Assembly: GCA_963776275.1 (NCBI GenBank)
Contig: CAVZMI010000029.1
Span: forward strand, 23,123-87,122
Reading direction: 5' to 3'
Length of the DNA: 64,000 nt
Source of the DNA: Ignavibacteriota bacterium
GTDB taxonomy: Bacteria > Bacteroidota > Ignavibacteria > UBA10030 > CAVZMI01
Shown: positions 1 to 57,106 of the stretch, piece by piece
Position numbering within the stretch: the stretch's first letter is position 1
Layout of the letters: the number at the start of each line of letters is the position of its first letter
Notes under the pieces: model-generated
Told to the model about the DNA's origin: nothing
Database searches by the model: none
The model's input: the letters and a program-made list of their open reading frames with translations, nothing else
Translations under genes and position numbers: made by a program

Positions 1-54
1 TACATTGTCGTTCGATACTTTCACTTGTGTCGAGAATTAAATAGAACCAGCTAT

Positions 55-2356: not shown

Positions 2357-3322
2357 TCATCCTCCTGCTAAATAAGTTGTGTCGACATACAACCACTCCC
2401 TTTTACCCTGTCCTCCAACTTGTAGTTGTTGCTCTATCACAAGTGCCACTGTCATCAAACCTTGTACACCTGCAGCACCCTCATACTTTCCTTCGCCATC
2501 GCCACTCATAATAAATCTTGCATCCCAGACCATACCGTTACCAGCTCTCATGATGTACCGTCTCATGATGGGTCTCATCACGCGCATAATATCAGTGAAC
2601 TTATCCCGCCGTGCCGGATTCCCAATACAGACCCATTCAACTTGGAAGGCATCTATATCGCTCTCACCTTTTACTATTTGATCATTATACTCTGCAATGA
2701 AACTTGAAAAATATCGTTCCGCTATCTGTCCAGGTAATCGGCTGACAACGACAAAAAAATCTTCATCTTTAACCGCAGAATAATTTTTCATAACTCGAAG
2801 ATTCTTAGGGATCTCCGGTTTTTGACCTTGCAGTGAACGAACGGCATCGATGGCTTTCTCCACTGCCCTGACAATCAGCGATTTTCCATCCACCGCATAT
2901 ATCTTGATCTGCGCTTCCGGGATGATACTAAGATCGATTGTGGATGAGGGTTTGTTCCACTTTTTATCTCTTATCATAGCTCGATAGAAATATTCTTTTC
3001 CGTTTTCTACTGAATAATCGACAATCCATGTATGCGCATTATCGAGATCTCTGAAAACAAATATTCCCAGATCTGCTAATTGCCCATCACTCAATTCATC
3101 ATCAAAATATTCCTCGATGTTTTCATTCGAAGGGTTTGCTCCCTGTTTCTTGAAAATATAGACCTGCCATACTTCAGGAAGATTTGTTGGCAATGTCCAA
3201 TTCAGTTGGATTTCTCCACCATGTGGATCAGAGTTCGCTGTAAATGATTCCAGCGGATCTGTATCATCTCTTGTAACCACGAGATAAAATATGAAGTGAA
3301 AAATTTTAGGGCGGCTCCTCAA
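2357..3322 (-). CDS. hypothetical virion-module protein
   Basis: 321-aa ORF. TTG at 3322 is the only start candidate I found near its 5' end. Preceded by the conserved 23-nt motif at 3355-3377. Confidence 0.5.
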   Translation of the reverse strand: MRSRPKIFHFIFYLVVTRDDTDPLESFTANSDPHGGEIQLNWTLPTNLPEVWQVYIFKKQGANPSNENIEEYFDDELSDGQLADLGIFVFRDLDNAHTWIVDYSVENGKEYFYRAMIRDKKWNKPSSTIDLSIIPEAQIKIYAVDGKSLIVRAVEKAIDAVRSLQGQKPEIPKNLRVMKNYSAVKDEDFFVVVSRLPGQIAERYFSSFIAEYNDQIVKGESDIDAFQVEWVCIGNPARRDKFTDIMRVMRPIMRRYIMRAGNGMVWDARFIMSGDGEGKYEGAAGVQGLMTVALVIEQQLQVGGQGKREWLYVDTTYLAGG

Positions 3323-3354
3323 CTGGAGCCATGAGAGAAGTTATTCTCAAAATA

Positions 3355-3377
3355 GGTAATTATTACCGTGATAATGG
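3355..3377 (-). promoter_or_regulatory. conserved palindromic motif, copy B (GGTAATTATTACCGTGATAATGG on the plus strand)
   Basis: Matches 14907-14929 at 22 of 23 positions. Contains the perfect palindrome GGTAAT-T-ATTACC. Lies about 35 nt upstream of a minus-strand virion ORF. Confidence 0.45.
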
Positions 3378-3456
3378 GAATTTAAACGAAAAATTTTCTT
3401 GACATTAATGTATAATATTATGAGATTCACGCATTATACTACTAATGGAGCCTACC

Positions 3457-3798
3457 ATGAAACCACGAATCACGTCTGTATTAATTGCATTTCTCTCGCT
3501 ATTTTTTCTTATAGCTCAATTAGATGCCGGTCAATGCAAAGCCATAACAAAGAAGGGAACCCAATGTAAACGAGAAGCGGTTTCCGGTTCTGACTATTGC
3601 TGGCAACATGGGGGCTCAAAAAAGAACAATTCATCAGTTTCCTCAAAATCCACCGATCAGTCTCCTGCGACTAAACAATCTAAAAAAGAGACAACCATCG
3701 GTACTACGGCAACCGGCAAATCCTTATATCAAGGACCGCGTGGAGGTGTATATCATTATAGTAAAAGTGGAAAAAAGGTATATCATAAAAGAAGGTAG
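3457..3798 (+). CDS. small secreted Cys/His-motif protein with a basic C-terminal GPRGG..GKKVY motif
   Basis: GGAG sits 7 nt upstream of ATG 3457, so the track start at 3445 lies upstream of the SD. N-terminus MKPRITSVLIAFLSLFFLIAQLDA looks like a signal peptide. Contains CKAITKKGTQCKREAVSGSDYCWQHG and GPRGGVYHYSKSGKKVY. Confidence 0.55.
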   Translation: MKPRITSVLIAFLSLFFLIAQLDAGQCKAITKKGTQCKREAVSGSDYCWQHGGSKKNNSSVSSKSTDQSPATKQSKKETTIGTTATGKSLYQGPRGGVYHYSKSGKKVYHKRR

Positions 3799-3806
3799 GC
3801 TAATTT

Positions 3807-4031
3807 ATGAAACTATCTAAAGATATTCGTGATTTACTACTCTGTTTGTTAATTGCGATTTCTGTAATATTCATATTTCAAACTTGCAGTAAGGATAGTA
3901 ATCCAACCTCATCCGGGGATTGTCCAAACGGAAGAAGTGGAGCGGTTTGCAACGATGGGACAACAAGTTCGGCGACGGGGAGTGGTGCTTGCTCAAAACA
4001 TGGAGGTGTTAATCACTGGCTATGTAAATAA
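3807..4031 (+). CDS. small secreted or lipoprotein-like DUF3761-type protein
   Basis: Hydrophobic N-terminus ending FIFQTC. C-terminal CNDGTTSSATGSGACSKHGGVNHWLC fits my recollection of the DUF3761 pattern CxDGxxSxSxxxxGxCSxHGGVxxW. Confidence 0.55.
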   Translation: MKLSKDIRDLLLCLLIAISVIFIFQTCSKDSNPTSSGDCPNGRSGAVCNDGTTSSATGSGACSKHGGVNHWLCK

Positions 4032-4061
4032 ATATAAAATCCTCTCCATCCTTTCATCTTT

Positions 4062-4940
4062 TTATTCCGCAGCAAGTCCGGCTTTCTGGAAGGCGTCTTT
4101 GACGGCTTTTGCCAGCATCCCATAGAATTCTGTTTTCACTGAATTAATCGCCTTTTCAGCAATATGCGATGCCTGGATCCCGGGATGTATCCACGCTTGG
4201 GGATCGGAGTTCTCGGATATTGTCCTGAATGATGAATACCGAGATCCGGAACCCGGACCAGCCTTGAATCTTACAATATTCTCAAAAGGTGATGTTTTCC
4301 ATGTGTACCGTACTGATCCTGTTGGCTCCCCGCCGCGAGGATATAGAGTCTGGCTCCCAGGTTTCCCCGCTCCCGATCGGGCCAGATCTCCTGTGACCGG
4401 AAAGACTTTCGATCGTCTGCCCAGATCTCCCATCCCCTTCAGCCGGCCGCCCCAGTCATATGAGCGCTGATCGCCCCGGGCCGTGTTTCTTATTATTGTG
4501 GTAATCCTACTTTCTCTCAAACCCCGGGCGCCCTCATACACTCCGGCTTCTTTGAGTTCGGATGTCGAATGTTCAAAAGGTATATGGATATATCTTTTTC
4601 CATCTTTCCCTACTTTTACCTTTGCACTCGTGCTCAACATTTTCTTGAGATCGAATGGTTGAACACCTTCCTCCAGATATTTCGCTGCAACATGTCTATT
4701 GACCACGAAAAATTGTAGTGGATCATGCTCGAATGGATATTCAATTCCTTCATCGATCTTTTGAATGTAGCCCCCGGGTCTTTTGAGGGCTGTCGCCGCT
4801 TCTTTGTGCCACGCCTGCACTAAAACCCCATAGCCGAAAGCCTCGACCTCACGCTCCAACTGCTCCTTCAATCCTTCAATTGCACTAACCAGATTTTCGA
4901 AAGGGGTGATATCGATAAAATATGAGAGTCGGATATCCAT
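4062..4940 (-). CDS. hypothetical virion-module protein
   Basis: 292-aa ORF convergent with the plus-strand pair of small genes. Family not recognised. Confidence 0.5.
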   Translation of the reverse strand: MDIRLSYFIDITPFENLVSAIEGLKEQLEREVEAFGYGVLVQAWHKEAATALKRPGGYIQKIDEGIEYPFEHDPLQFFVVNRHVAAKYLEEGVQPFDLKKMLSTSAKVKVGKDGKRYIHIPFEHSTSELKEAGVYEGARGLRESRITTIIRNTARGDQRSYDWGGRLKGMGDLGRRSKVFPVTGDLARSGAGKPGSQTLYPRGGEPTGSVRYTWKTSPFENIVRFKAGPGSGSRYSSFRTISENSDPQAWIHPGIQASHIAEKAINSVKTEFYGMLAKAVKDAFQKAGLAAE

Positions 4941-4964
4941 TATTAATATTTCTATGTGAATAAC

Positions 4965-4993
4965 TTGCTTTTTAAAATGAATATAGCTATACT
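4965..4993 (+). promoter_or_regulatory. sigma70-like promoter for the RHH-tnpB unit
   Basis: TTGCTT (4965-4970), 17-nt spacer, TATACT (4988-4993). The RHH ATG follows 6 nt later with no SD, so the transcript may be leaderless. Confidence 0.4.
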
Positions 4994-4999
4994 ATCTAT

Positions 5000-5131
5000 A
5001 TGAGAATCTTCCAAATTTATCTGACCAAACCTCAGATTGCGGCACTTAAAAAGCTCTCAGAGAAACTCGATCTAAGCATTGCCGAGCTCGTGCGTCGTGC
5101 CATTGATATGTTCTTGGAACAACAAAAATGA
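5000..5131 (+). CDS. ribbon-helix-helix (CopG/Arc-like) small protein coupled to tnpB
   Basis: 43-codon ORF absent from the track (under 60 aa): MRIFQIYLTKPQIAALKKLSEKLDLSIAELVRRAIDMFLEQQK. It has a beta-strand then two helices with the SxAELxRxAI signature. Its TGA overlaps the tnpB ATG (ATGA at 5128-5131). Confidence 0.6.
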   Translation: MRIFQIYLTKPQIAALKKLSEKLDLSIAELVRRAIDMFLEQQK

Positions 5132-6267
5132 GACGCACATTTCAATATCGAGTTCAACTTTCTAAAACTAATGAAGCGAATTGTCTCAGATGGTTAGAGC
5201 AATGCCGAATTCTCTACAACCTTGCTCTTGAACAACGTATTACCATCTATCGACAAAGCAGAAAATCCCTTTCTTGTTACGATCAAATAAAACAGTTGCC
5301 CGAACTCAAAAAAGAGTTTTCCGATTTCAAACAGGTTGATTCTCAATGTTTGCAGGATGTTCTTGAACGACTCGATAAAGCATTTAAAGGATTCTTTCGG
5401 CATGTCAAACAGGGTAAAGCTGGATTTCCACGCTTCAAGTCTTTTGGAAGATATGATTCCTTCACGTTGAAACAATGCAGTTGGAAACTCAATATTAGAA
5501 ATCTTACCATCAAAAATATCGGAGTTCTCAGCCTTCGTCTCTCCCGGCCGATCGAAGGCCGTATCAAGACCATTACAATTCGTCGAACTCCAACCGGCAA
5601 ATGGTTCGCCTGTTTCTCCTGTGATGAGGTTCCCGTTCGAAGCTTTCCGATAACCACGGCCGAAGTGGGTATCGATGTTGGTAGCAGAACATTTTGTACA
5701 GACTCCGATGGATTCAGTATTCCCAATCCAAAATATTTGAAACAGGGGCAAGCTGATCTCCGACGCAAGCAGCGTCGCCTTGCCAGGCGTGTCAGAGGCT
5801 CGCAACGCAGGAAGAAAGCACGGATGCTTGTAGCTAAGGCCCACGAGAAAGTAGCCAATCAGCGGAAAGATTTTCTTCATAAGTTGGCGAACGACTATAT
5901 AAGAAAATACAAAACGATCCATATTGAGGATCTCAATATTCAAGAAATGGTAAAAGGAATTAAAGGCAATACGAAATACATCGGCAAATCCGTGGCCGAT
6001 GCCGGATGGGGTGAATTCTTTCGAATGCTCTCGTACAAAGCGGAAGAAGCTGGTCGAGTCATTGTTAGAGTTCCCTCGAAGGATACGACAACCACCTGTT
6101 CCCGATGCGGCGTTGCTGTTCCAAAATCTCTTACCATTCGTATTCATCGATGTCCCTCTTGTAATCTTAAAATCGGCCGTGACCTAAATGCGGCTCTGAA
6201 TCTTTTAAGGGTCGGGCAGACCCTTCAGGCGTCAACGTGGGCTGATGTAAGGCCGTGCGTTGCCTGA
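5128..6267 (+). CDS. tnpB: TnpB (IS200/IS605-family OrfB, RNA-guided RuvC nuclease), copy 1
   Basis: 379 aa. N-terminus MRRTFQYRVQLSKT..CLRWLEQCRILYNLALEQR. RuvC motifs GIDVG, IHIEDL and RDLNAALN. Zinc finger CSRCG..CPSC. Paralog of 50143-51270. Confidence 0.9.
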   Translation: MRRTFQYRVQLSKTNEANCLRWLEQCRILYNLALEQRITIYRQSRKSLSCYDQIKQLPELKKEFSDFKQVDSQCLQDVLERLDKAFKGFFRHVKQGKAGFPRFKSFGRYDSFTLKQCSWKLNIRNLTIKNIGVLSLRLSRPIEGRIKTITIRRTPTGKWFACFSCDEVPVRSFPITTAEVGIDVGSRTFCTDSDGFSIPNPKYLKQGQADLRRKQRRLARRVRGSQRRKKARMLVAKAHEKVANQRKDFLHKLANDYIRKYKTIHIEDLNIQEMVKGIKGNTKYIGKSVADAGWGEFFRMLSYKAEEAGRVIVRVPSKDTTTTCSRCGVAVPKSLTIRIHRCPSCNLKIGRDLNAALNLLRVGQTLQASTWADVRPCVA

Positions 6268-6322
6268 GAATCTCGGCGTTTTTAAAAGCATGGGAATGTC
6301 AAAGCCTCTCATATTTCATAGC
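6160..6322 (+). ncRNA. putative omega RNA (reRNA) of TnpB copy 1. The 5' boundary is approximate, and the guide is predicted at 6303-6322.
   Basis: A 35-nt block (6203-6237) is 100% identical to copy 2 while the flanking codons differ at synonymous sites. It contains the hairpin GGGTC-GGGCA-GACCC (6209-6223). Conservation continues about 35 nt past the stop codon and ends at GGGAATGTCAA (6302). Confidence 0.5.
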
Positions 6323-6325
6323 CGA

Positions 6326-7159
6326 TCATAAATCGTTGTCCAAGAATCTGTCGTTCGTTTCAAATACATCTTGTTTGGTGTCTACTGTGTCGATCGGATT
6401 TGTCAACTTATTGAAAAATGCACGCTTCACCGTCATAACCATTTTCGGAAGATCATTTTCTTCCGTAGCCCGGGCTTTCGCCAGTTCTTCCCAAACGATG
6501 TAGTTTGGTGAGCACAAAAATTCGACGGCATAATCTGCACCCACGGCCGGCGCCTTACTGTCCTCTGTCTCTAACCATTCGACTTCTATATCCGAGACCA
6601 CAGGCATATCCGCCGACGCCGAAATCTGTACTGTCCCATCCGACAATATTACGGTAGTAGGTTCGGTTCCATTGACCTTAATTTTATAGTCAGTCCCATA
6701 TATGTATCGGAGTTCGAATTTCTCGGCGTTCACACTCACGAGAGACAAAATGCTCTTTACGTCAAAGGCAAAGATCACATCTTTTTTCCCTCTGGTAAGA
6801 ACATCGAAATCTCTGATGGGCTTGTTCTTGATAACAATAATATCGCCTTTGAATATGCGATCGTAAATTGTCAGCCGCTTAAATTCACCTTCGACCCATT
6901 CCACTGGAGGTATCGAGAACCGCGCACCACCCTCATAAATCTTCCCCGCTGGCCGCGTAATGATATGATAGCTTACAGAAGTTCGGATCAATCTTACCTG
7001 GACCGGGTCATCATATTTGTATCCATGAATTGCATCGGCATCCGCCATAGTTAATCCATGCCTGAGTTCAGGCGACAATTTGGATTGATACCATAGGCAT
7101 TCGACTCCGAATTGTCGGATCAATTTCTGTACTTTGCTATTCGATAATATTTTTCTCAT
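6326..7159 (-). CDS. hypothetical virion-module protein
   Basis: 277-aa ORF, 8 nt downstream of the preceding virion ORF. Family not recognised. Confidence 0.5.
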   Translation of the reverse strand: MRKILSNSKVQKLIRQFGVECLWYQSKLSPELRHGLTMADADAIHGYKYDDPVQVRLIRTSVSYHIITRPAGKIYEGGARFSIPPVEWVEGEFKRLTIYDRIFKGDIIVIKNKPIRDFDVLTRGKKDVIFAFDVKSILSLVSVNAEKFELRYIYGTDYKIKVNGTEPTTVILSDGTVQISASADMPVVSDIEVEWLETEDSKAPAVGADYAVEFLCSPNYIVWEELAKARATEENDLPKMVMTVKRAFFNKLTNPIDTVDTKQDVFETNDRFLDNDL

Positions 7160-7167
7160 CGCCGGTC

Positions 7168-8268
7168 CTATACTACAGTTATTTCGTAACCGATACCATA
7201 TTCCCTCTTCATTTCCTCAGTCCACTTCGTTTCATCCTCGCGCAAATCTTTGAGCAGTCGATCAATACCCGATGACTCCGAACTGCTCACTCCATCCATC
7301 GACAAACTCTGAGAAATCAAGCGTACCTTCGCATCAATCTTAGGCAATATTTCAATAAGTGCGTTCCGGCCGATTGCTCTGCGAATTGCTTCTTTCTTTG
7401 CATCATCTAATGTCGGGAAATCCAGACCATGCGTATACTCGATCCGGAATAGTTGCGGGACACGACTGTATATCCCTCCCTGCATAATTGTTAGCCCGAG
7501 ACCATTCATCGCACCAATCAGTATTGAATACAGGGAGCCGGACATGGCTGTCGGCAAGAATTCTATTATACCCATCTTCTTGTCTATTACCAGCTGGTCA
7601 GCAATATTCGGGATAAGCTCAGCTTGCTGACTGCCGTATACCAACTTGAAGGAATCAACACTAATGAGCGGCCGGCAATCTACCTGCTGCAGCCAGAATT
7701 CTGTCTTGAAATCCTGCAAATAGTAATCGCGTTTTATTGAGTCTTTGGACTTAAAAAATTTCATCTTTATTCTATTTTCAAGCTCTCCCTGTGAAGCGAG
7801 AAGCGTATTTCTCATACTATCCCGATCTTCTTTTACATATGATTCGACGGCATCCTTATAATCGTCATCCAACTTCGCATCTGCGGCTATGTATTGACTT
7901 AGGAATATCGATACCGGCATAATTTCTGCCCGAACGCCATTTGTATCTCCAACAGTAATTAATCTGATATCCTGAGGCACATTCGATTGATCAATAAGAA
8001 CGTTGATTTCTTCGTTTTGGACATTCCAGTAAATGCGATAATAACCAGGTCTCGTATTTTGAGAGAATATTACATCGATGTAGTATTGATTTTTATCTTC
8101 TGCATCATCGAATGTAGCTTCCTTGTCTTTGATCTCTTCACTCTGATCATCGAGGGCCACGGCTCCATCCTCGCCGTAAATGCTTGCGGTGACAGTAAGG
8201 TCTGCCACCGCCGCATTCGCATCTTCGAGATAGAATCTATTCGTACCTTGAAGAGCCAATGTTTTCAT
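7168..8268 (-). CDS. hypothetical virion-module protein
   Basis: 366-aa acidic ORF, tightly packed after the 75-aa ORF. Family not recognised. Confidence 0.5.
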   Translation of the reverse strand: MKTLALQGTNRFYLEDANAAVADLTVTASIYGEDGAVALDDQSEEIKDKEATFDDAEDKNQYYIDVIFSQNTRPGYYRIYWNVQNEEINVLIDQSNVPQDIRLITVGDTNGVRAEIMPVSIFLSQYIAADAKLDDDYKDAVESYVKEDRDSMRNTLLASQGELENRIKMKFFKSKDSIKRDYYLQDFKTEFWLQQVDCRPLISVDSFKLVYGSQQAELIPNIADQLVIDKKMGIIEFLPTAMSGSLYSILIGAMNGLGLTIMQGGIYSRVPQLFRIEYTHGLDFPTLDDAKKEAIRRAIGRNALIEILPKIDAKVRLISQSLSMDGVSSSESSGIDRLLKDLREDETKWTEEMKREYGIGYEITVV

Positions 8269-8271
8269 CTA

Positions 8272-8499
8272 TTATGATCCTTTATTTTTCTCGTCAATAT
8301 ACCGATTTGCGATATCCATGGTATCTTGGTCTGTGCAGATAATCTGATGCTTTGACCAATCCAGCTTCGGGCCGGCAAAATATACTTCTTTCAATTTCAA
8401 TTTTCTCAATTCGGCCAAATCGAACGAAGTGTATGGTGCATCATAGAAATACAAATTGAAAGATTGACCTTCGAATTTTATAGCTTCTTTGTTTTTCAT
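8272..8499 (-). CDS. hypothetical protein
   Basis: 75-aa ORF between the tail fibre gene and the 366-aa ORF. Confidence 0.4.
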   Translation of the reverse strand: MKNKEAIKFEGQSFNLYFYDAPYTSFDLAELRKLKLKEVYFAGPKLDWSKHQIICTDQDTMDIANRYIDEKNKGS

Positions 8500-8512
8500 A
8501 TCCTAATCCTTA

Positions 8513-10624
8513 TTATGATGTCGGAGCTTTTATCAATCCGTGGGCTCCACCTAATGCATGGAGATCGTTGATTAAGGCCATAAGCGCTTGATTGAATTCT
8601 GTCTGTGTAGATTCATCGGTCAATACGTCTCTATTGAGTGTCCCGGTCGGTAATCCCCAGCCAGCCTTTGATGCGCCAATCAGTTTGTCCCAGTTTGCAG
8701 TAAATATACCTCCCGTATTGGCAAGCATTATATAGCTGGCATATATTTCTCCCCATGAAGCACCACTTCCAGCTACACACAATCCAGTACCACTCGCCTT
8801 TCCAATCCGAGGATATGAGCTCGAACGATCAAAAAACAATTGATCTGGTACAAACATTGAATTTCCATTATTAGTATCAATGCCAAAAATCTTGTTGCCG
8901 TCCATATCCGTCACATCAAACCATCTCTTAACCATTAAAGAAACCGCAGATCCGACAGCTTTCAAATATACTACTGGATCCGCCATATCTGAACCCAAAA
9001 GAGCGATGAAATTCTTAAATATTGCTTGGTCGGACCTAATGTTTTTTGATAGAATCTCAAACACGTTATTCCATACTCCCATTTTTTGCATGAGAATTGA
9101 AGCTCTCCATGTATCTGCCGCTGCGGCAAGATGCGTCCCGTCTCCATTCCAGCCGAGTCGAACAAGTTCCTCATAACTCTTACATGAAGGGAAACTATCA
9201 TGGTAAAACAAATCATGAGTATCCGCATGCGCTTTAAGAATAGCATTGGATTCTTTTGTCACGGCATTATTATCTTCTGACCAAACCGGAGAAGTACCTA
9301 TCAAACACCAATCCATATTGGGACAGGCAGTCAAAAATTTCTGATAAGTACTTTCGAGGGCATCTGCCCATCCCTCGATAGGATCCTTCCACTCCATATA
9401 CATGAGATCAAAATTCATTTCAGAAAAATAAGTCTGGAAGAAATCAGGATCTATTGCGTCCCATTGAGTAAGATCAGCACCCGAGCCAGCCGAAATGCTT
9501 AATTCTACTCCGGAATTTTTTGTAGATCTGATGTAACCACGTAACGATCTCACTATACCGGTGAGACCTACAATTCTTACTTGATGCTGACCTGTCTCTT
9601 CGTATGGTATTGTAATAGTTTTGAGTTCTATGTCACCGTCTGCATCCACATTCGTGTAATCCTCGATATCTTCCCATGTTCCTTGACCTTGACCCGAAAC
9701 AGTTTTGGTTTGCAGTTTAAACGTACCGGCATCGGGTTCTTGTATGTAAAATATTACAATTTCATCAGCATATTCCCCCCCACCATCGATGACAGTTCCT
9801 CCTTCGGGAATATAATAATATCCTCCAGACGAAGGATCGTCCGTCTTCCATTCAGCTCCATTTTCTGCACAATTTTGTGGAGTGGCTCCTTCCAACTTAC
9901 CATAGGCCTTTTGAACTAAATTATTTATGTAATTCGGAAGACGATTTCCTATTGAATCTCCCCAGACTGCTACTCTCAGCTGAGATGGAACCGGCGGATC
10001 TTCCGGATCTCCTGCTGCTTCCTTTTCACGTGCTATTTCCATCGCATGCAATTTTTGCCAGACGTTTCTGAATTGCGGGATCGGTGGAGTAGATACATTG
10101 GCCACTTCATCTTCCAGTGTTCCTATGTCTGTAGTGTGCTCGCCGACTGTTGTCTGTAAGCTTCCTATATCTGTAGTATGTCCACCGACTGTACTCTGCA
10201 AAGTTCCTATATCCTCACCCTGTGCGGCAACCGTCTCTTCTATGCCTTCTAACTCTACGCCTCCCAGATTTTCAATCTGGCTGGTATGTGTGTCGACTGT
10301 CTCCTGCAAAGTTTTAAGCGCTGCTATGGATGGCGATGAAATAAGTAAGTATCTTTTGCCCTTCGTGCGGTGTGGGCTGGCGGTTGTAATATCACTTCCT
10401 CGTTGCCCGAAAGTTAAAACTTTCCCGACTTTCACCGATATCACCCCATCCTCAATCTCAGGATCAAGAAAGGGAGAATGGATATACTCTTCATTGATGA
10501 TCCAGTACGGAAAAGGCGCCGCCGGCAGCCCTGATGCATCGAGCACCTCGCATATAGTAGCACTCTGAGTAATCCCGCTCTTCAAATATGCGGCCGCTAA
10601 TTCCTTTTTATTTTTAAGTGCCAT
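8513..10624 (-). CDS. tail fibre/tailspike with an SGNH (GDSL-type) esterase domain
   Basis: Probable start at ATG 10624 (MALKNKKEL), with GAGGTG 4 nt upstream. The track start at 10699 adds 25 implausible residues. Coiled repeats GTLQSTVGGHTTDIGSLQTTVGEHTTDIGTLEDEV. SGNH block I VAVWGDSIGN and block V GDGTHL. Confidence 0.6.
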   Translation of the reverse strand: MALKNKKELAAAYLKSGITQSATICEVLDASGLPAAPFPYWIINEEYIHSPFLDPEIEDGVISVKVGKVLTFGQRGSDITTASPHRTKGKRYLLISSPSIAALKTLQETVDTHTSQIENLGGVELEGIEETVAAQGEDIGTLQSTVGGHTTDIGSLQTTVGEHTTDIGTLEDEVANVSTPPIPQFRNVWQKLHAMEIAREKEAAGDPEDPPVPSQLRVAVWGDSIGNRLPNYINNLVQKAYGKLEGATPQNCAENGAEWKTDDPSSGGYYYIPEGGTVIDGGGEYADEIVIFYIQEPDAGTFKLQTKTVSGQGQGTWEDIEDYTNVDADGDIELKTITIPYEETGQHQVRIVGLTGIVRSLRGYIRSTKNSGVELSISAGSGADLTQWDAIDPDFFQTYFSEMNFDLMYMEWKDPIEGWADALESTYQKFLTACPNMDWCLIGTSPVWSEDNNAVTKESNAILKAHADTHDLFYHDSFPSCKSYEELVRLGWNGDGTHLAAAADTWRASILMQKMGVWNNVFEILSKNIRSDQAIFKNFIALLGSDMADPVVYLKAVGSAVSLMVKRWFDVTDMDGNKIFGIDTNNGNSMFVPDQLFFDRSSSYPRIGKASGTGLCVAGSGASWGEIYASYIMLANTGGIFTANWDKLIGASKAGWGLPTGTLNRDVLTDESTQTEFNQALMALINDLHALGGAHGLIKAPTS

Positions 10625-30138: not shown

Positions 30139-30654
30139 TTATGCTGTTAAATATTTTCTTCTGCGGCCAAGTTGTATATTGCTGATTGCTGTCGGCGATA
30201 TCATGAATCTATCCGCAATTTCGCGCTGGGTTATTTTCCCTCTCAAGTTTCTTATCTCCAGCACTTGCTCGTCTGTCAGTTTAGCTTCGGGATGTTTTTC
30301 ACCTTCCAAAAATGTTCCATCCCTAATTCGATCCTCTTTCTGATTTTTCGATTTCGTGCCCCACGATAAATTAGCAATAGAATTATCATTTTTGCCGTTT
30401 GGTCCATGACAGCCCTCCATTCCGGGAGGACATGAACCAACAAATGTGAGAAGCACAAGCCGATGGACTCGTAAATTTGGCTTATTCAAACCAAAATGTG
30501 CTATATTATATCCACGGCGATCTTTCCGTGGTTTCAGCTTTCTAATTCCGCGTTTATTTACTTTCGCGCCACCTATCGGCCTATTACTCCAAATATTTCC
30601 ATCTGTATCGGCATAGTAATTTGGGTATCCGGGTATCGGTCTCATCTCAGCCAT
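30139..30654 (-). CDS. HNH homing endonuclease (NUMOD4 + HNH_3 type) with a C-terminal HTH
   Basis: 171 aa. PIPGYPNYYADTDGNIWS (NUMOD4-like), then VHRLVLLTFVG..CHGPNGKNDNSIANLSWGT. Confidence 0.8.
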   Translation of the reverse strand: MAEMRPIPGYPNYYADTDGNIWSNRPIGGAKVNKRGIRKLKPRKDRRGYNIAHFGLNKPNLRVHRLVLLTFVGSCPPGMEGCHGPNGKNDNSIANLSWGTKSKNQKEDRIRDGTFLEGEKHPEAKLTDEQVLEIRNLRGKITQREIADRFMISPTAISNIQLGRRRKYLTA

Positions 30655-49651: not shown

Positions 49652-50110
49652 TTACTTCCATCCAGACCTCGGCCAATCTTTCGGAAATATTATTCCTACG
49701 GACGGATTCAATTCGCGTATGGCCATGGCACGCGCCACATATACAGCTTCTTTATTCTTGAATATGATATAGCTTTCAGCACCGAGTCTTTCGAGATCGC
49801 ATAATGCTTCGAACTGATGATATTTCACACCGAATTGATCTGGATCTGTCGGTAATAAAAAAGGTAAACCGAGTTTCGTTCTGTGACTCTTCGCCTCGAT
49901 GAATAGTGATCGGGCATATTGATTGTTTGAACCATAAAATCGTGAACCTATAAAGTCATATCCTGTCCTTCGCTTAAAAAATACTACATCTCCATTCGGC
50001 GTCTTTCTGTATCCTTTTGGAACCTCGAACTTTTGCAAATAGGCTATTCTCCGCCTCCAATATTCCTTCGCCACAAGCATTATCTCCTTCTCAAAATCCA
50101 TACCCCTCAT
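49652..50110 (-). CDS. PD-(D/E)xK Holliday-junction-resolvase-like nuclease (RecU/Hjc-like)
   Basis: TGYDFIGSRF...SLFIEAKSH gives the D...ExK motif. The likely start is ATG 50110 (MRGMDF), with AGGA 6 nt upstream. The track start at 50155 lies inside the TnpB right end. Confidence 0.55.
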   Translation of the reverse strand: MRGMDFEKEIMLVAKEYWRRRIAYLQKFEVPKGYRKTPNGDVVFFKRRTGYDFIGSRFYGSNNQYARSLFIEAKSHRTKLGLPFLLPTDPDQFGVKYHQFEALCDLERLGAESYIIFKNKEAVYVARAMAIRELNPSVGIIFPKDWPRSGWK

Positions 50111-50255
50111 TGACATTCCTACGTTTAAAGACGTTGAGATTTTCAGGCTACACATGAGTTTACCTCACTCTTCGTTGACGCCTGAAGGGTCTGCCCGACC
50201 CTTAAAATGTTATGTGCCGCGTTCAAATCCCGATTCATCTTCAAACCGCATGCGG
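50090..50255 (-). ncRNA. putative omega RNA (reRNA) of TnpB copy 2. The 5' boundary is approximate, and the guide is predicted at 50109-50090.
   Basis: Carries the same 35-nt identical block and hairpin (50187-50201) as copy 1. Homology ends at AGGAATGTCAA (last A at 50110). Confidence 0.5.
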
Positions 50256-51270
50256 GACATTTATGAATACGACGGTGAATTGTTTTTGGTACCAACTCTC
50301 CACATTGAGAACAAGTTTCACTCGTGCCTTTGGGATCAACCTTCACCACCGTCCTACCAGCTTCCTCCGCTTTGTAGGATAGCATTGTAAAGAAATCACC
50401 CCATCCGGCATCGGCCACAGATTTACCTGCATATTTGTTTTCACTGACCATTGCTGGTATATCCAGATCCTCGATGTGAATGATTTTGTAATTTCTGATG
50501 TAATGATTCGCTGTCTTATGAAGAAAATCTTTGCGCTGATTCGCTATTCTCTCATGGACCTTGGCTACAAACATCCGTGCTTTCTTCCTGCGTTGCGAAC
50601 CTCTGACTTTCCGTGCAAGTCTTCGTTGACGGCGACGGAGATCTGCCTGTCCCTGCTTTAAGTATTTTGGATTGGGAATACTGAATCCATCGGAGTCTGT
50701 ACAGAATGTACGGCTGCCAACATCGATACCGACCTCGGCCGTCGTTACCGGAAAACTCCGAACCGGAACTTCGTCACAGGAAAAGCAAGCGAACCATTTG
50801 TCGGTTGAGGTGCGACGGATTGTAATGGTTTTGATCTTACCCTCAATCGGTCGGGAGAGATAAAGTTTCAATCGTCCAATCTTCGAAAGATGCAAATATT
50901 GTCCTTCAATTTTCCAGCCATGTTGTGTCAAGGTGAAGGAATCATAGCGACCAACGGATTTGAAACGTGGGAATCCGGCTTTGCCTTGCTTAACTCTCCG
51001 GAAGAATCCTTTGTATGATTTATCGAGTCGCTGAAGAACATCACATAGGCAGTGAGAATCAATCTGTATAAAGTCAGGAAATGCTTTTTTGAGTTCCGGA
51101 AGTTGATTCTGTTGATCGTAATAAGAGAGAGATTTTTTACACTGCCGATAAACCATTATGCGTTGCTCGAGGGCGAGGTTGTAAAGAACTCGGCACTGTT
51201 CCAACCAACGGAGGCAATTCACCTCAGTTGTCTTCGAAAGTTGAACTCGATATTGAAATGCGCGTCTCAT
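50143..51270 (-). CDS. tnpB: TnpB (IS200/IS605-family OrfB, RNA-guided RuvC nuclease), copy 2
   Basis: 375 aa. GIDVG, IHIEDL, CSQCG..CPACG and RDLNAAHN are all present. By eye about four-fifths identical to copy 1. Confidence 0.9.
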   Translation of the reverse strand: MRRAFQYRVQLSKTTEVNCLRWLEQCRVLYNLALEQRIMVYRQCKKSLSYYDQQNQLPELKKAFPDFIQIDSHCLCDVLQRLDKSYKGFFRRVKQGKAGFPRFKSVGRYDSFTLTQHGWKIEGQYLHLSKIGRLKLYLSRPIEGKIKTITIRRTSTDKWFACFSCDEVPVRSFPVTTAEVGIDVGSRTFCTDSDGFSIPNPKYLKQGQADLRRRQRRLARKVRGSQRRKKARMFVAKVHERIANQRKDFLHKTANHYIRNYKIIHIEDLDIPAMVSENKYAGKSVADAGWGDFFTMLSYKAEEAGRTVVKVDPKGTSETCSQCGELVPKTIHRRIHKCPACGLKMNRDLNAAHNILRVGQTLQASTKSEVNSCVA

Positions 51271-51458
51271 CGCGTCTCTATTCCCCGGCGTTTTATCATT
51301 TGTGCATTTCTCAATTCCGCGCTGATTTCTTTCCAGACATTCCCGCGCCGCTCTGGGAATATGCTTTGAGGATCATTGACGGGACCAGGCCGACTTTTGT
51401 ATAACTCAAGAGCGATCGACAGGAAGACACTGCTCGACTTATTATCCGCCTTTTGCAT
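51267..51458 (-). CDS. small coupled ORF (63 aa)
   Basis: MQKADNKSSSVFLS... Its start shares TAATG with the DUF5131 stop, and its stop shares ATGA with the tnpB start. No motif recognised. Confidence 0.35.
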   Translation of the reverse strand: MQKADNKSSSVFLSIALELYKSRPGPVNDPQSIFPERRGNVWKEISAELRNAQMIKRRGIETR

Positions 51459-52408
51459 TATTTGGTTTCGCATATCGTCCTCTCTGGCATCTCATTCCAG
51501 ATTCTACAATCAAGCTCTCGACCTGCTTTATTCTTCCCTATTCCATCAAACCACCACCGTTCCTTTGTCACGGGATCCTCAAAGAGTTGATAATGCAGCA
51601 TTGTTTTTCTTTCTTCATATGTCTCGGCATCTCTCATCTCACTCTCCGGACATATTGGTTTCCATCGTCCCCATTGTTTAAAGAAAAACGGGATGGATGC
51701 TGCCTCGCATTGATCGCGAATCTCACGTACCCAATTGGGAAATAGTGGTCTTGCTTCCGGACCAGATTCGCCTCCACATATCACCCAGGTAAGTTTTGAT
51801 TTATTTCCCCACCATTTTGCTGGGTCTTTCCGACCATTGACACAAAACAATTTTATAGGTCCGAGCATTGGCTCTATACTTAAGAATCTGACCGCAGCCG
51901 GCGTTTCATACAGATCTGATACACGTAGATCATATGTCTCTTGGTTCTCTGCTGATATCCCCAGCCAAACGTTCGGTTTTGGCCAATGACAACCTATAAT
52001 GATTCCGGTCCCATCGTATGCTTTCTCCGGAGCCGTTCCATTGTGAGTCCAAATTCCCTCCCAAGACCCTACCTTAGAAAACCATTCTTTCATTCGCCCA
52101 GGACGTTTCGTCAATATCTGATAAATATGTTTTTCAGACATTGCGCCAAATACTCTCGCAATAAAATCATCAGGCACCTGTTCATGGAATAGATCACTCA
52201 TCGAACACAAAAAAATCTTCCTCGGCTTTCGCCAGTGAAGAGGCTGATCTAACTTCTCCGGATGAAGTTCAATTTTTGAGAAATCGACATCTATCCTCGG
52301 TGCGATCCGTTCTGCATAACAATTTTTACATCCGGCCGATATTTTTGTGCAACCAGAGATAACGTTCCAGGTTGAATCCGTCCATTCTATTTTTGAGTTT
52401 ATTCCCAC
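51458..52408 (-). CDS. DUF5131 (phage Gp37/Gp68 family) protein
   Basis: 316 aa. SKIEWTDSTWNVISGCTKISAGCKNCYAERIAPR is the family's signature N-terminus. GTG start with GGAAGGA upstream. Confidence 0.8.
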   Translation of the reverse strand: MGINSKIEWTDSTWNVISGCTKISAGCKNCYAERIAPRIDVDFSKIELHPEKLDQPLHWRKPRKIFLCSMSDLFHEQVPDDFIARVFGAMSEKHIYQILTKRPGRMKEWFSKVGSWEGIWTHNGTAPEKAYDGTGIIIGCHWPKPNVWLGISAENQETYDLRVSDLYETPAAVRFLSIEPMLGPIKLFCVNGRKDPAKWWGNKSKLTWVICGGESGPEARPLFPNWVREIRDQCEAASIPFFFKQWGRWKPICPESEMRDAETYEERKTMLHYQLFEDPVTKERWWFDGIGKNKAGRELDCRIWNEMPERTICETK

Positions 52409-55734: not shown

Positions 55735-56145
55735 TCAAAATGGAAGGTCTGATTCGTTTTGAACTGTACCAGTTGCAGCTGCTGATGATTGGTTTTCCGC
55801 AGCTTCGCTCGACGATGTTTGCCTTGGAGCTCCATCGAGCATGATTAAACTCTCAGCCAAGATTTCAGTGATATAACGTTTCACACCATTTTTATCGTCG
55901 TAGCTTCGTGTTTGAATCCGTCCTTCGATATAAACTCTTTTCCCCTTCTTCAGCCACTCGCCGCATATTTCTGCAAGTTTTCTCCAGGCAACAATATTGT
56001 GCCACTCGGTGCGTTCCTGCAGATTTCCATCCTGATCCTTCCAGCTCTCGCTTGTCGCGATGGCAACTCCGCTTGTGGTATATCGGAGCTCAGGGTCCTT
56101 CCCGAGATTTCCGATGAGCATCGCTTTATTCAGACTTTTCGCCAT
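55735..56145 (-). CDS. ssb: single-stranded DNA-binding protein
   Basis: 136 aa. [48 protein letters not shown] is an OB fold. The acidic C-terminal tip ends in DLPF. Confidence 0.9.
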
Positions 56146-57106
56146 CTGAAGTCTCCGATGATGTGACGGTTGTGGTTTCAGTAAATATTCTCTTACTCAC
56201 GTATCTCAGCGCGTCGCCGTTATGCTTCACCGCCTCCAGACATACCTCAACCGTCTGTTCCTTCACGTATCTCAGCGCGTAGCCGTCCCGACGCACCGCC
56301 TCCAGACATACCTCAACCGTCTGTTCCTTCACGTATCTCAGCGCGTCGCCGTTATGCTTCACCGCCTCCAGACATACCTCAACCGTCTGTTCCTTCACGT
56401 ACTGAAGCGCGTAGCCGTCCTGACGCACCGCCTCCAGACATACCTCAACCGTCTGTTCCTTCACGTACTGAAGCGCGTCGCCGTTATGCTTCACCGCCTC
56501 CAGACATACCTCAACCGTCTGTTCCTTCACGTACTGAAGCGCGTCGCCGTCCCGACGCACCGCCTCCAGACATACCTCAACCGTCTGTTCCTTCACGTAT
56601 CTCAGCGCGTAGCCGTCCTGACGCACCGCCTCCAGACATACCTCAACCGTCTGTTCCTTCACGTACTGAAGCGCGTCGCCGTCCTGACGCACCGCCTCCA
56701 GACATACCTCAACCGTCTGTTCCTTCACGTATCTCAGCGCGTAGCCGTTATGCTTCACCGCCTCCAGACATACCTCAACCGTCTGTTCCTTCACGTACTG
56801 AAGCGCGTCGCCGTTATGCTTCACCGCCTCCAGACATACCTCAACCGTCTGTTCCTTCACGTACTGAAGCGCGTCGCCGTTATGCTTCACCGCCTCCAGA
56901 CATACCTCAACCGTCTGTTCCTTCACGTACTGAAGCGCGTCGCCGTCCTGACGCACCGCCTCCAGACATACCTCAACCGTCTGTTCCTTCACGTACTGAA
57001 GCGCGTCGCCGTCCTGACGCACCGCCTCCAGAGCTTTTTCGCCTATTAGTTCGATGATTTCTGATTCTCGGCGATTGATCGATACCAAAAATAACTTGAG
57101 ATCCAT
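56126..57106 (-). CDS. tandem-repeat protein (DUF4116-like 22-aa repeats x13)
   Basis: 326 aa. The unit LEAV[RQD/KHN/RRD]G[D/Y]AL[Q/R][10 protein letters not shown] repeats 13 times. Short unique N- and C-termini. Confidence 0.7.
56198..57031 (-). repeat. 66-bp tandem repeat array (about 12.6 units), coding
   Basis: Exact 66-nt periodicity (for example CGCCTCCAGA at 56231 and 56297). The units are identical except at a few codons. Confidence 0.95.

Follow-up and report, generated by a model that had tools for sequence, protein, structure and literature searches.

How does a gene for an RNA-guided nuclease of transposon origin come to lie between two conserved phage genes with no transposase beside it, and by what route could it persist or spread there? 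The question is raised by a 64,000-nt stretch of contig CAVZMI010000029.1 (positions 23,123 to 87,122 of the forward strand; hereafter the window), in which positions 4948–6317 are a plus-strand cassette of 1.37 kb (1370 bp) inserted in phage DNA. We hold its anatomy with high confidence: a promoter (4965–4993), a gene for a ribbon-helix-helix (RHH) protein, arc (5000–5131), tnpB (5128–6267) and an omegaRNA scaffold that ends in TCAA (6157–6302), followed by the guide. The best explanation, to which we give a probability of about 0.7, is that an IS608-like (TTAC...TCAA) IS200/IS605 element gave rise to it: having lost transposase and left end, it is now a free-standing nuclease cassette that persists or spreads like a phage homing-endonuclease gene. 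An earlier account of the locus made from its letters alone (the sequence-only reading) had described a self-contained RHH-TnpB-omegaRNA unit without TnpA, antisense between two phage genes; the features it listed were all found at their coordinates, and the description is borne out by two phages in which the site is empty.

The boundaries of the cassette were read from these insert-free relatives, an alignment that the sequence-only reading had proposed. The sister phage L185 (80–88% identity), found in a metagenome scan with gene A (88% protein identity), is about 80% identical to the window in DNA. By blastn, L185 1–1427 corresponds to window 7744–6318 and L185 1412–2252 to window 4947–4059. 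In the window the cassette separates gene B (4062–4940, minus strand, 292 aa, start at 4940), a member of a PHROG family of unknown function, from gene A (6326–7159, minus strand, 277 aa, stop at 6326), which has no family match. In L185 the two genes abut, the gene A stop overlapping the gene B start (ATGA), and since exactly 4948–6317 is missing there, the segment is an insertion. The more distant L186 also lacks it, with genes A and B adjacent and 29 nt apart, so the cassette is a present/absent polymorphism between conserved genes of related phages. The left edge agrees with an independent limit, that of homology to the RHH modules of L180–L182 (window 4949). Genes A and B are themselves without functional annotation; the gene after gene A (7168–8268) matches a PHROG tail-fiber family, and the surroundings are therefore taken as a tail or virion module. 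No match was returned by blastn of window 3000–9000 against 50,697 phage records, and no relative of a flanking virion protein was found in IMG/VR.

The junctions themselves are unusual. The 16-nt stretch ATATCCGATCATAAAT of the L185 empty site occurs on both sides of the insert: the right copy (ATAGCCGATCATAAAT, 6318–6333) holds the gene A stop codon (TCA, 6326–6328), and a left, degenerate copy (ATATCC-ATTATTAAT, 4933–4947) holds the present gene B start codon (CAT, 4938–4940). The gene B N-terminus is remodelled, reading MDIRLSYF in the window against MIGYSLSYF in L185. In addition, the guide begins with the last 15 nt of the insert (6303–6317, AGCCTCTCATATTTC), and these repeat, in reverse complement, the sequence immediately to the left of the duplicated stretch. 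The junctions read GAGAGGCTTTGACATTCC and TTAATATTTCTATGTGAATAACTTG.

The nuclease gene appears intact. Its 379-aa product matches the Pfam families OrfB_IS605 (1.5e-26), Cas12f1-like_TNB (2.3e-21) and HTH_OrfB_IS605, as well as PDB structures of ISDra2 TnpB (E 1e-55); the profile searches suggested in the sequence-only reading thus recovered both open reading frames (ORFs), the smaller as RHH_1/RHH_3. D183, E267 and D352, together with C324/C327/C342/C345, lie in invariant columns of a 34-member family alignment, so the RuvC acidic motifs and the zinc finger are complete, as had been read from the sequence. Comparison with a second tnpB in the window (copy 2, described below) gives a dN/dS of 0.14. 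The intact RuvC triad rules out a TldR, a nuclease-dead TnpB-like repressor, and retention of D352 rules out membership in the RHH/MazE-TnpB clade, which is archaeal and has the RuvC-III Asp changed to His (RIIIr-4). TnpB homologs are held by 143 cultured phage records. A 317-aa ORF runs antisense to tnpB copy 1 (5194–6147, minus strand); copy 2 has nothing but short ORFs on the matching strand, and the 317-aa ORF is therefore probably not a gene.

Single-sequence folding of the omegaRNA was not significant (z –0.4 and –1.8), and Rfam at gathering thresholds matched no family anywhere in the window, curated omegaRNA families included, so covariation was used instead. About 170 related loci were collected and 46 family 3′ ends aligned. 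These ends share ...GGGTC-GGGCA-GACCC...TCAGGCG...GCCTGAGAATC-hairpin-GAGTGTCAA, and their similarity stops straight after TCAA; L109 and L110, identical elements at different sites, diverge at that very point. The right end closing in TCAA as in IS608-type elements, cited in the sequence-only reading, is thus a family-wide boundary. RNAalifold on 31 non-window sequences predicted 29 pairs, and compensatory double changes occur in 24 of these; 96.4% of paired cells were complementary against 75.8% in shuffles (0/500 shuffles as high; slid controls about 40%). A covariance model built from the same 31 sequences (R1) finds exactly two matches in the window, both full length, at 6157–6302 (103.1 bits, E 4e-25) and at 50253–50110 on the minus strand (94.6 bits, E 7e-23). 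The covariance-model search that had been proposed therefore recovers both copies and confirms the right-end boundary, and with it the guide start. The same lack of an Rfam family at gathering score rules out an IStron (group I intron plus TnpB).

What the cassette lacks is equally telling. Canonical members of the family carry a Y1 transposase, TnpA, whose stop overlaps the tnpB start; in the closest of these (P0003/L001, 64% identical TnpB), TnpA overlaps the same AAATGAGACGCAC start and the right end is the same. Their left ends read TTAC (or TTAT) | ... hairpin ... CTTGACA-17-TATACT...ATG, and the TTAC and TCAA ends mark the family as IS608-like. In the window, the ORF upstream of tnpB copy 1 matches RHH and not Y1_Tnp, and tblastn with four family TnpAs found no Y1 TnpA in the whole 64 kb (best E about 0.1). 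Upstream of the promoter there is no hairpin, no TTAC and no left-end-like motif, the insertion edge standing only 17 nt from the –35 box, while the right end with its hairpin and TCAA is intact. Without TnpA and a left end, the unit cannot move by the TnpA route. Nor is the insertion of the scarless type, 3′ of a transposon-associated motif (TAM) and without target duplication; instead there is the 16-nt flank on both sides and the inverted 15-mer.

The family survey places this arrangement in context. Upstream sequence was long enough at 162 loci: a Y1 transposase was coupled to tnpB in about 30 of them, no ORF in 79, and assorted small ORFs in the remainder; 40 coupled ORFs exceeded 100 aa and were mostly TnpA. 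Only in L107, a viral contig of 78 kb, was there a close homolog of the window Arc; there too it precedes tnpB (55% identical product) with an ATGA overlap, and the promoter is laid out alike. Upstream of the closest TnpB homologs (P0002, P0003 and P0004), where the sequence-only reading had suggested a survey and had named absence of the RHH gene as a refuting result, that gene is not conserved: copy 2 has an unrelated 68-aa ORF in this position, P0003 a TnpA and P0004 nothing. Arc is nevertheless a real, recurrent partner, to judge from its dN/dS of 0.05 against L180. Haloarchaeal loci (L076–L097) have RHH-like or AbrB-like/DUF2080 ORFs in the coupled position and represent the archaeal RHH/MazE-TnpB clade in the survey. 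Small zinc-ribbon mini-proteins (CxxC...CxxC, 41–63 aa) are tightly coupled to tnpB or arc in L114/L008 (952–1077), L164 (1357–1500), L066 (1335–1508) and L182 (1580–1771). Remnants of tnpA were seen as a 33-aa C-terminal piece in L019 (1403–1504) and an internally deleted 28-aa ORF in L050 (1418–1504), both still overlapping the tnpB start, so that tnpA has decayed with the ATGA junction kept.

With the right end fixed, the predicted guide is AGCCTCTCATATTTCATAGC (6303–6322, plus strand), starting where the sequence-only reading had placed it. That account had it match the 3′ flank of a virion gene, which stands only in part: the first 15 nt (6303–6317) lie inside the insert, syntenic flank makes up only 6318–6322, and the one significant match lies in the other flanking gene, at its 5′ end and on the opposite strand. 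In L185, the sequence gatat|AGCCTATCATATTTTATCGA at the gene B 5′ end, opposite strand and 9 nt from the insertion point, matches the guide at 16/20 positions and at 13/14 over the first, TAM-proximal 14 nt. Of 2000 shuffled guides, none reached this match within ±60 nt of the empty site; 11 reached it when the whole of L185 was allowed. The window's own allele of this putative target, gene B codons 3–9 (4912–4931, minus strand; atatc|CGACTCTCATATTTTATCGA), agrees at 15/20; guide positions 1 and 3 are mismatched, and the TAM position differs too (TATC). The empty site lacks the canonical target, which would be a TAM followed by the right flank on the same strand. Written for TnpB with its omegaRNA, the guide is AGCCTCTCATATTTCA, and the reconstructed target allele has AGCCTCTCATATTTT. 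Neither this guide nor that of copy 2 has a second match in the window at up to 3 mismatches.

At the head of the cassette, the promoter TTGCTT-17-TATACT lies 6 nt before the arc ATG, a near-leaderless layout, and shares homology with the left-end promoters of the family's canonical members. Taken by itself it agrees with the consensus at 3/6 (–35) and 5/6 (–10) positions, and a consensus promoter scan did not list 4965–4993. The layout TTGAC(T/A)-17-TATA(C/A)T-6..8-ATG is kept in seven homologous RHH modules, ATATAGCTATACTATC being identical in the window and L180/L182, and canonical left ends in front of tnpA share it (CTTGACA..GCTATACTATC..ATG); for this reason we regard the promoter as credible. 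The promoter call of the sequence-only reading is accordingly upheld by conservation of the layout and weak on the motif alone. A leaderless or nearly leaderless transcript start, which it had also raised, is plausible, since the spacing of 6–8 nt from –10 to ATG is constant across the seven modules, without a Shine-Dalgarno sequence.

The 43-codon arc ORF matches Pfam RHH_1 (E 3.6e-7, 30.4 bits, cutoff 20.5) and RHH_3 (4.6e-7, above cutoff) over residues 4–41, has homologs of 60–84% identity, and lies within the insert as delimited by the empty site. Its TGA overlaps the tnpB ATG (ATGA, 5128–5131). The sequence-only reading took such a partner to be outside the canonical IS200/IS605 layout, but it is already in the literature. 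Altae-Tran et al. (2023, PNAS; PMC10691335) described an archaeal RHH/MazE-TnpB clade with a toxin-antitoxin hypothesis and a cofold model, and Zedaveinyte et al. (10.1101/2023.11.20.567912) an Arc-like RHH ORF occurring with TnpB, homing endonucleases, toxin-antitoxin systems and Cas12k, the first notice of Arc-containing IS605-family elements. Moon, Zedaveinyte, Wiegand & Sternberg (September 2026; bioRxiv 10.64898/2026.09.24.754181) showed by ChIP-seq, reporters and mutagenesis that Arc binds at the element promoter and that tnpB expression is repressed by it; elements with arc and tnpB only are among those they covered, and some of the Arcs are ≤50 aa and unannotated. The experimentally studied Arc proteins include the WP_003367503.1 clade. 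The window RHH protein is, by analogy, this published “Arc” of IS605-family elements, likened to the tested Arcs by description and not by sequence.

A candidate Arc operator, ATATAGCTATACTAT (4981–4995), overlaps the –10 box and contains the palindrome TATAGCTATA (4982–4991). This 15-mer occurs once in the window, is identical in L180/L182 and is similar in L178/L179; no further Arc operator in the window scored above chance. Its assignment draws on the ChIP-seq and reporter data for Arc homologs. The polar β-strand residues Q5/Y7/T9 are in register with the N5/N7/T9 DNA contacts reported for Arc, and together with the palindrome over the gene's own –10 they make autorepression the best-supported function by analogy, one that we consider likely. 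The suggestion in the sequence-only reading that the RHH protein is an autoregulator agrees with the experimental results on Arc homologs. Left-end promoters of several TnpA-bearing members (L113 about 1060–1117, L052, L045 and L022) have an inverted repeat, TTGTTGATA ... TATCAACAA, bracketing the –10 box although these loci encode no Arc; it might serve as another kind of regulatory site or form a hairpin at the mRNA 5′ end.

The promoter and arc also occur away from TnpB. A database search with the 43-aa Arc returned five homologs (60–84% identity), the closest of which (70–84%) head HNH homing-endonuclease cassettes. L178/L179 have RHH plus an HNH endonuclease, L178 being a 93.9-kb phage related to the window phage by terminase and helicase synteny. 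L182 has RHH, a small Zn-ribbon ORF and an HNH endonuclease, antisense between structural genes; its 175-aa payload is missed by Pfam and recognised by PHROGs as an HNH endonuclease. In L183/L184 the RHH gene precedes ParA and ParB. Judged from these homologs, the promoter-arc module is portable, being shared by TnpB, HNH and ParAB operons.

The second tnpB, copy 2 (50143–51270, minus strand, 375 aa, 76% aa identity to copy 1), shows what else this lineage can look like. DNA homology between the copies runs from exactly the tnpB ATG to ...GGAATGTCAA (6302 / 50110), 35 nt beyond the stop, as the sequence-only reading had noted. Copy 2 has neither arc nor a promoter of its own and lies inside an operon (49652–52408, minus strand) of a DUF5131 gene (51458–52408), a 68-aa ORF (51267–51473) that is ATGA-coupled to tnpB, tnpB itself and a RecU-like gene. 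The 68-aa ORF was considered as a diverged RHH protein or a member of a known family and rejected, with no similarity to RHH and no Pfam or PHROG match. The omegaRNA scaffold of copy 2 (50110–50253, minus strand) ends in TCAA, whose last A (50110) is the A of a downstream ATG; its guide, TGAGGGGTATGGATTTTGAG (50109–50090, minus strand), is the 5′ end of the downstream gene. An empty site for copy 2 was not found, DUF5131 relatives being ≤47% identical. The dN/dS of 0.14 between the two tnpB genes indicates that both are maintained.

These parts suggest how the cassette would work. Transcription would start at or beside the arc ATG from the left-end-type sigma-70 promoter, and tnpB translation would be coupled to that of arc through the ATGA overlap. 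The 43-aa Arc, an RHH dimer, would most likely bind the palindrome over the –10 box and repress its own operon. Folding of the tnpB mRNA's 3′ end together with the right end (35 nt) would give the omegaRNA scaffold, and roughly the 16–20 nt after it would serve as guide. This carried guide would be aimed at the gene B 5′ end in insert-free alleles, the copy in the host phage being changed at TAM and seed. During co-infection, TnpB-omegaRNA would cut the DNA of a relative that lacks the insert, close to the insertion point, and the cassette would then be copied in by recombinational repair. The layout is that of a homing gene, because the cassette lies between conserved genes and is polymorphic, its putative target is in the neighbour of the empty allele, and the self allele is changed at TAM and seed. 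TnpA-independent, TnpB-dependent spread (“non-restorative homing”) has been reported for plasmids and proposed for phages. On the sequence alone, we hold active homing of this cassette as a tentative reading, at somewhat below even odds.

Several observations weigh against it. The inverted match between guide and neighbour was not seen at about 50 other family loci, which behave as chance, and the rearrangement behind the junction might itself have produced it; the inverted 15-mer is possibly a foldback or template-switch scar. The sequence at the TAM position of the putative target is ATAT, vs the TTAC or TTAT that flanks canonical left ends, and L185 is mismatched at guide position 6, so that this relative may escape cleavage. 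L185 is also the only close sister contig found. As for the regulatory head, the –35 box is poor (3/6) and the promoter taken alone is not above chance, and the existence of copy 2 without Arc or promoter means that Arc is not required by this TnpB lineage.

Three other explanations were weighed. The cassette might be an inert remnant that arrived by illegitimate recombination, the repeats being scars, with a TnpB that is targetless and decaying or that serves an unrelated phage function such as attack on host or competitor DNA. The odd junction structure, unique to this locus, would fit, as would a TAM that is not of the family type and the quasi-palindrome of the empty site (GATA..TATC), which could favour foldback. 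We judge this improbable, however, given the strong purifying selection on tnpB and arc, an omegaRNA fully conserved in both copies with model scores like those of active-looking relatives, the retention of all catalytic residues, and a 13/14 TAM-proximal match beside the insertion whose self allele is changed at exactly TAM and seed. An ordinary non-autonomous IS200/IS605 element, with Arc as cargo, TnpA acting in trans by peel-and-paste and TnpB providing restorative retention at the donor site, would account for the intact right end with hairpin and TCAA and for the resemblance to P0003/L001, which has TnpA at the same tnpB start and the same right end; published Arc elements are, moreover, transposons. 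Upstream of the promoter, however, there is no left-end hairpin, no TTAC and no similar motif, edge and –35 being only 17 nt apart, and there is no TnpA in the window. Neither the 16-nt duplicated flank nor the inverted 15-mer is made by a Y1 transposase, and the canonical TAM plus right-flank target is missing from the empty site, which makes this account quite unlikely.

The pair could also be toxin-antitoxin-like, a toxic TnpB being neutralised by the RHH protein through protein contact, as proposed for archaeal RHH/MazE-TnpB. We give this very little weight. The antitoxin-first, overlapping-gene layout is suggestive, recurs in the surveyed haloarchaeal loci and comes with the PNAS 2023 hypothesis and cofold model, and arc has a weak Antitox_RHH match (E 0.017); but the window protein is a bare RHH domain (residues 4–41) with no tail for toxin binding, and its close homologs stand at the head of HNH and ParA-ParB operons, as a promoter-bound regulator might. 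The archaeal clade has the RuvC-III D-to-H change where the window TnpB keeps D352, copy 2 exists without any RHH, and the Arc experiments show DNA binding and repression. A free-standing nuclease cassette from an IS608-like element, persisting or spreading like a homing-endonuclease gene, thus remains the explanation we prefer.

Set against known systems, the cassette combines features of several. As in Arc-containing IS605 elements, a small (≤50 aa) RHH gene adjoins tnpB within the element, a candidate binding site lies over the element's own promoter and polar residues occupy β-strand positions 5/7/9; arc+tnpB-only elements and homing-endonuclease neighbours are reported there too. Unlike in those elements, arc lies upstream of tnpB on the same strand and is translationally coupled to it, not divergent with tnpA; TnpA and the left end are missing, and the host is a phage. 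With IS608/ISDra2-type OMEGA systems the cassette shares the TnpB fold, the DED triad, an omegaRNA made from the tnpB 3′ end plus right end, and a guide taken from the DNA after that end; the right end terminates in TCAA and the family left-end flank is TTAC, as in IS608. It differs in lacking TnpA and a left end, in its duplicated 16-nt flank, and in that the cassette brings along the first 15 bases of its guide, which point at the opposite strand of a neighbour gene, not at the TAM plus flank junction. The nuclease gene is wedged between conserved phage genes and polymorphic among relatives, like the T4 seg/mob genes of intronless homing, with a putative target in a conserved neighbour near the insertion and a self allele that differs by substitutions. 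A further likeness to phage homing genes is that, in related phages, HNH endonucleases stand behind this same promoter-arc module. Unlike in seg/mob, recognition would be by an RNA guide and not by protein, and homing itself is putative. In contrast to the archaeal RHH/MazE-TnpB clade, with its rearranged RuvC-III and proposed toxin-antitoxin role, the window TnpB is of bacterial type with a canonical D352.

Other inserted material was seen at and around these loci. Adjoining gene B, a plus-strand block antisense to it (3384–4058; GC 0.387 vs 0.431 for the window) is missing from both L185 and L186; the products of its two small ORFs (3445–3798, 117 aa; 3807–4031, 74 aa) are hydrophobic at the N-terminus and rich in Cys at the C-terminus, where they finish with a C-x-x-HGG-like motif, and the block resembles an insertion of the moron type. 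An ORF for a free-standing HNH-like endonuclease of 171 aa (30139–30654, minus strand), with no RHH in front, is about 50% identical over 79 aa to the HNH protein after the L182 RHH and sits, with overlapping stop/start, between genes of 587 aa and 222 aa. In two related phages, different elements occupy the slot that follows an SNF2-type helicase gene: RHH plus an HNH endonuclease in one (L178 9963–10712) and a canonical TnpA-TnpB element in the other (L001 3369–5158). This slot looks like a hot spot for selfish cassettes. A 66-nt tandem repeat (56208–57032, 12.5 copies, 91% matches) was considered as a CRISPR array and rejected: its units are 91% alike throughout and lie within an ORF (56126–57106, minus strand) that encodes a protein with 22-aa repeats.

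Phage-borne TnpBs, Arc partners, omegaRNAs and the homing concept are already known, and with all parts of known kinds the RHH-TnpB pairing itself adds little. The specific interest of the locus lies in the base-resolved pair of filled and empty alleles, the promoter-arc head held in common with HNH cassettes, and the guide carried inside the insert. The occurrence of the promoter-arc head in TnpB, HNH and ParAB operons suggests that it is a common regulatory unit for selfish cassettes in this phage group. The locus is a clean natural test case: both alleles are in hand with boundaries to the base, and the guide, the target and the “immune” self allele are short enough to synthesise, so that TnpA-free homing or competition by TnpB between co-infecting phages, and its tuning by Arc, are directly testable. 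The empty-site sister phage suggests that the cassette behaves like a homing endonuclease rather than a transposon. The strongest form of this idea, which we regard as doubtful, is that of a natural TnpB fully switched from transposon accessory to free-standing RNA-guided phage homing endonuclease, in a mobile unit with its own promoter, repressor, nuclease and scaffold, a fixed guide against the opposite strand of an essential neighbour in insert-free phages, a host allele recoded at TAM and seed so as to escape, and a promoter-arc head exchangeable between TnpB and HNH payloads. If true, it would mean intronless homing in which self and target are discriminated by substitutions and not by the presence or absence of a transposon, and a guide-carrying, single-spacer, CRISPR-like stage would have been reached without TnpA.

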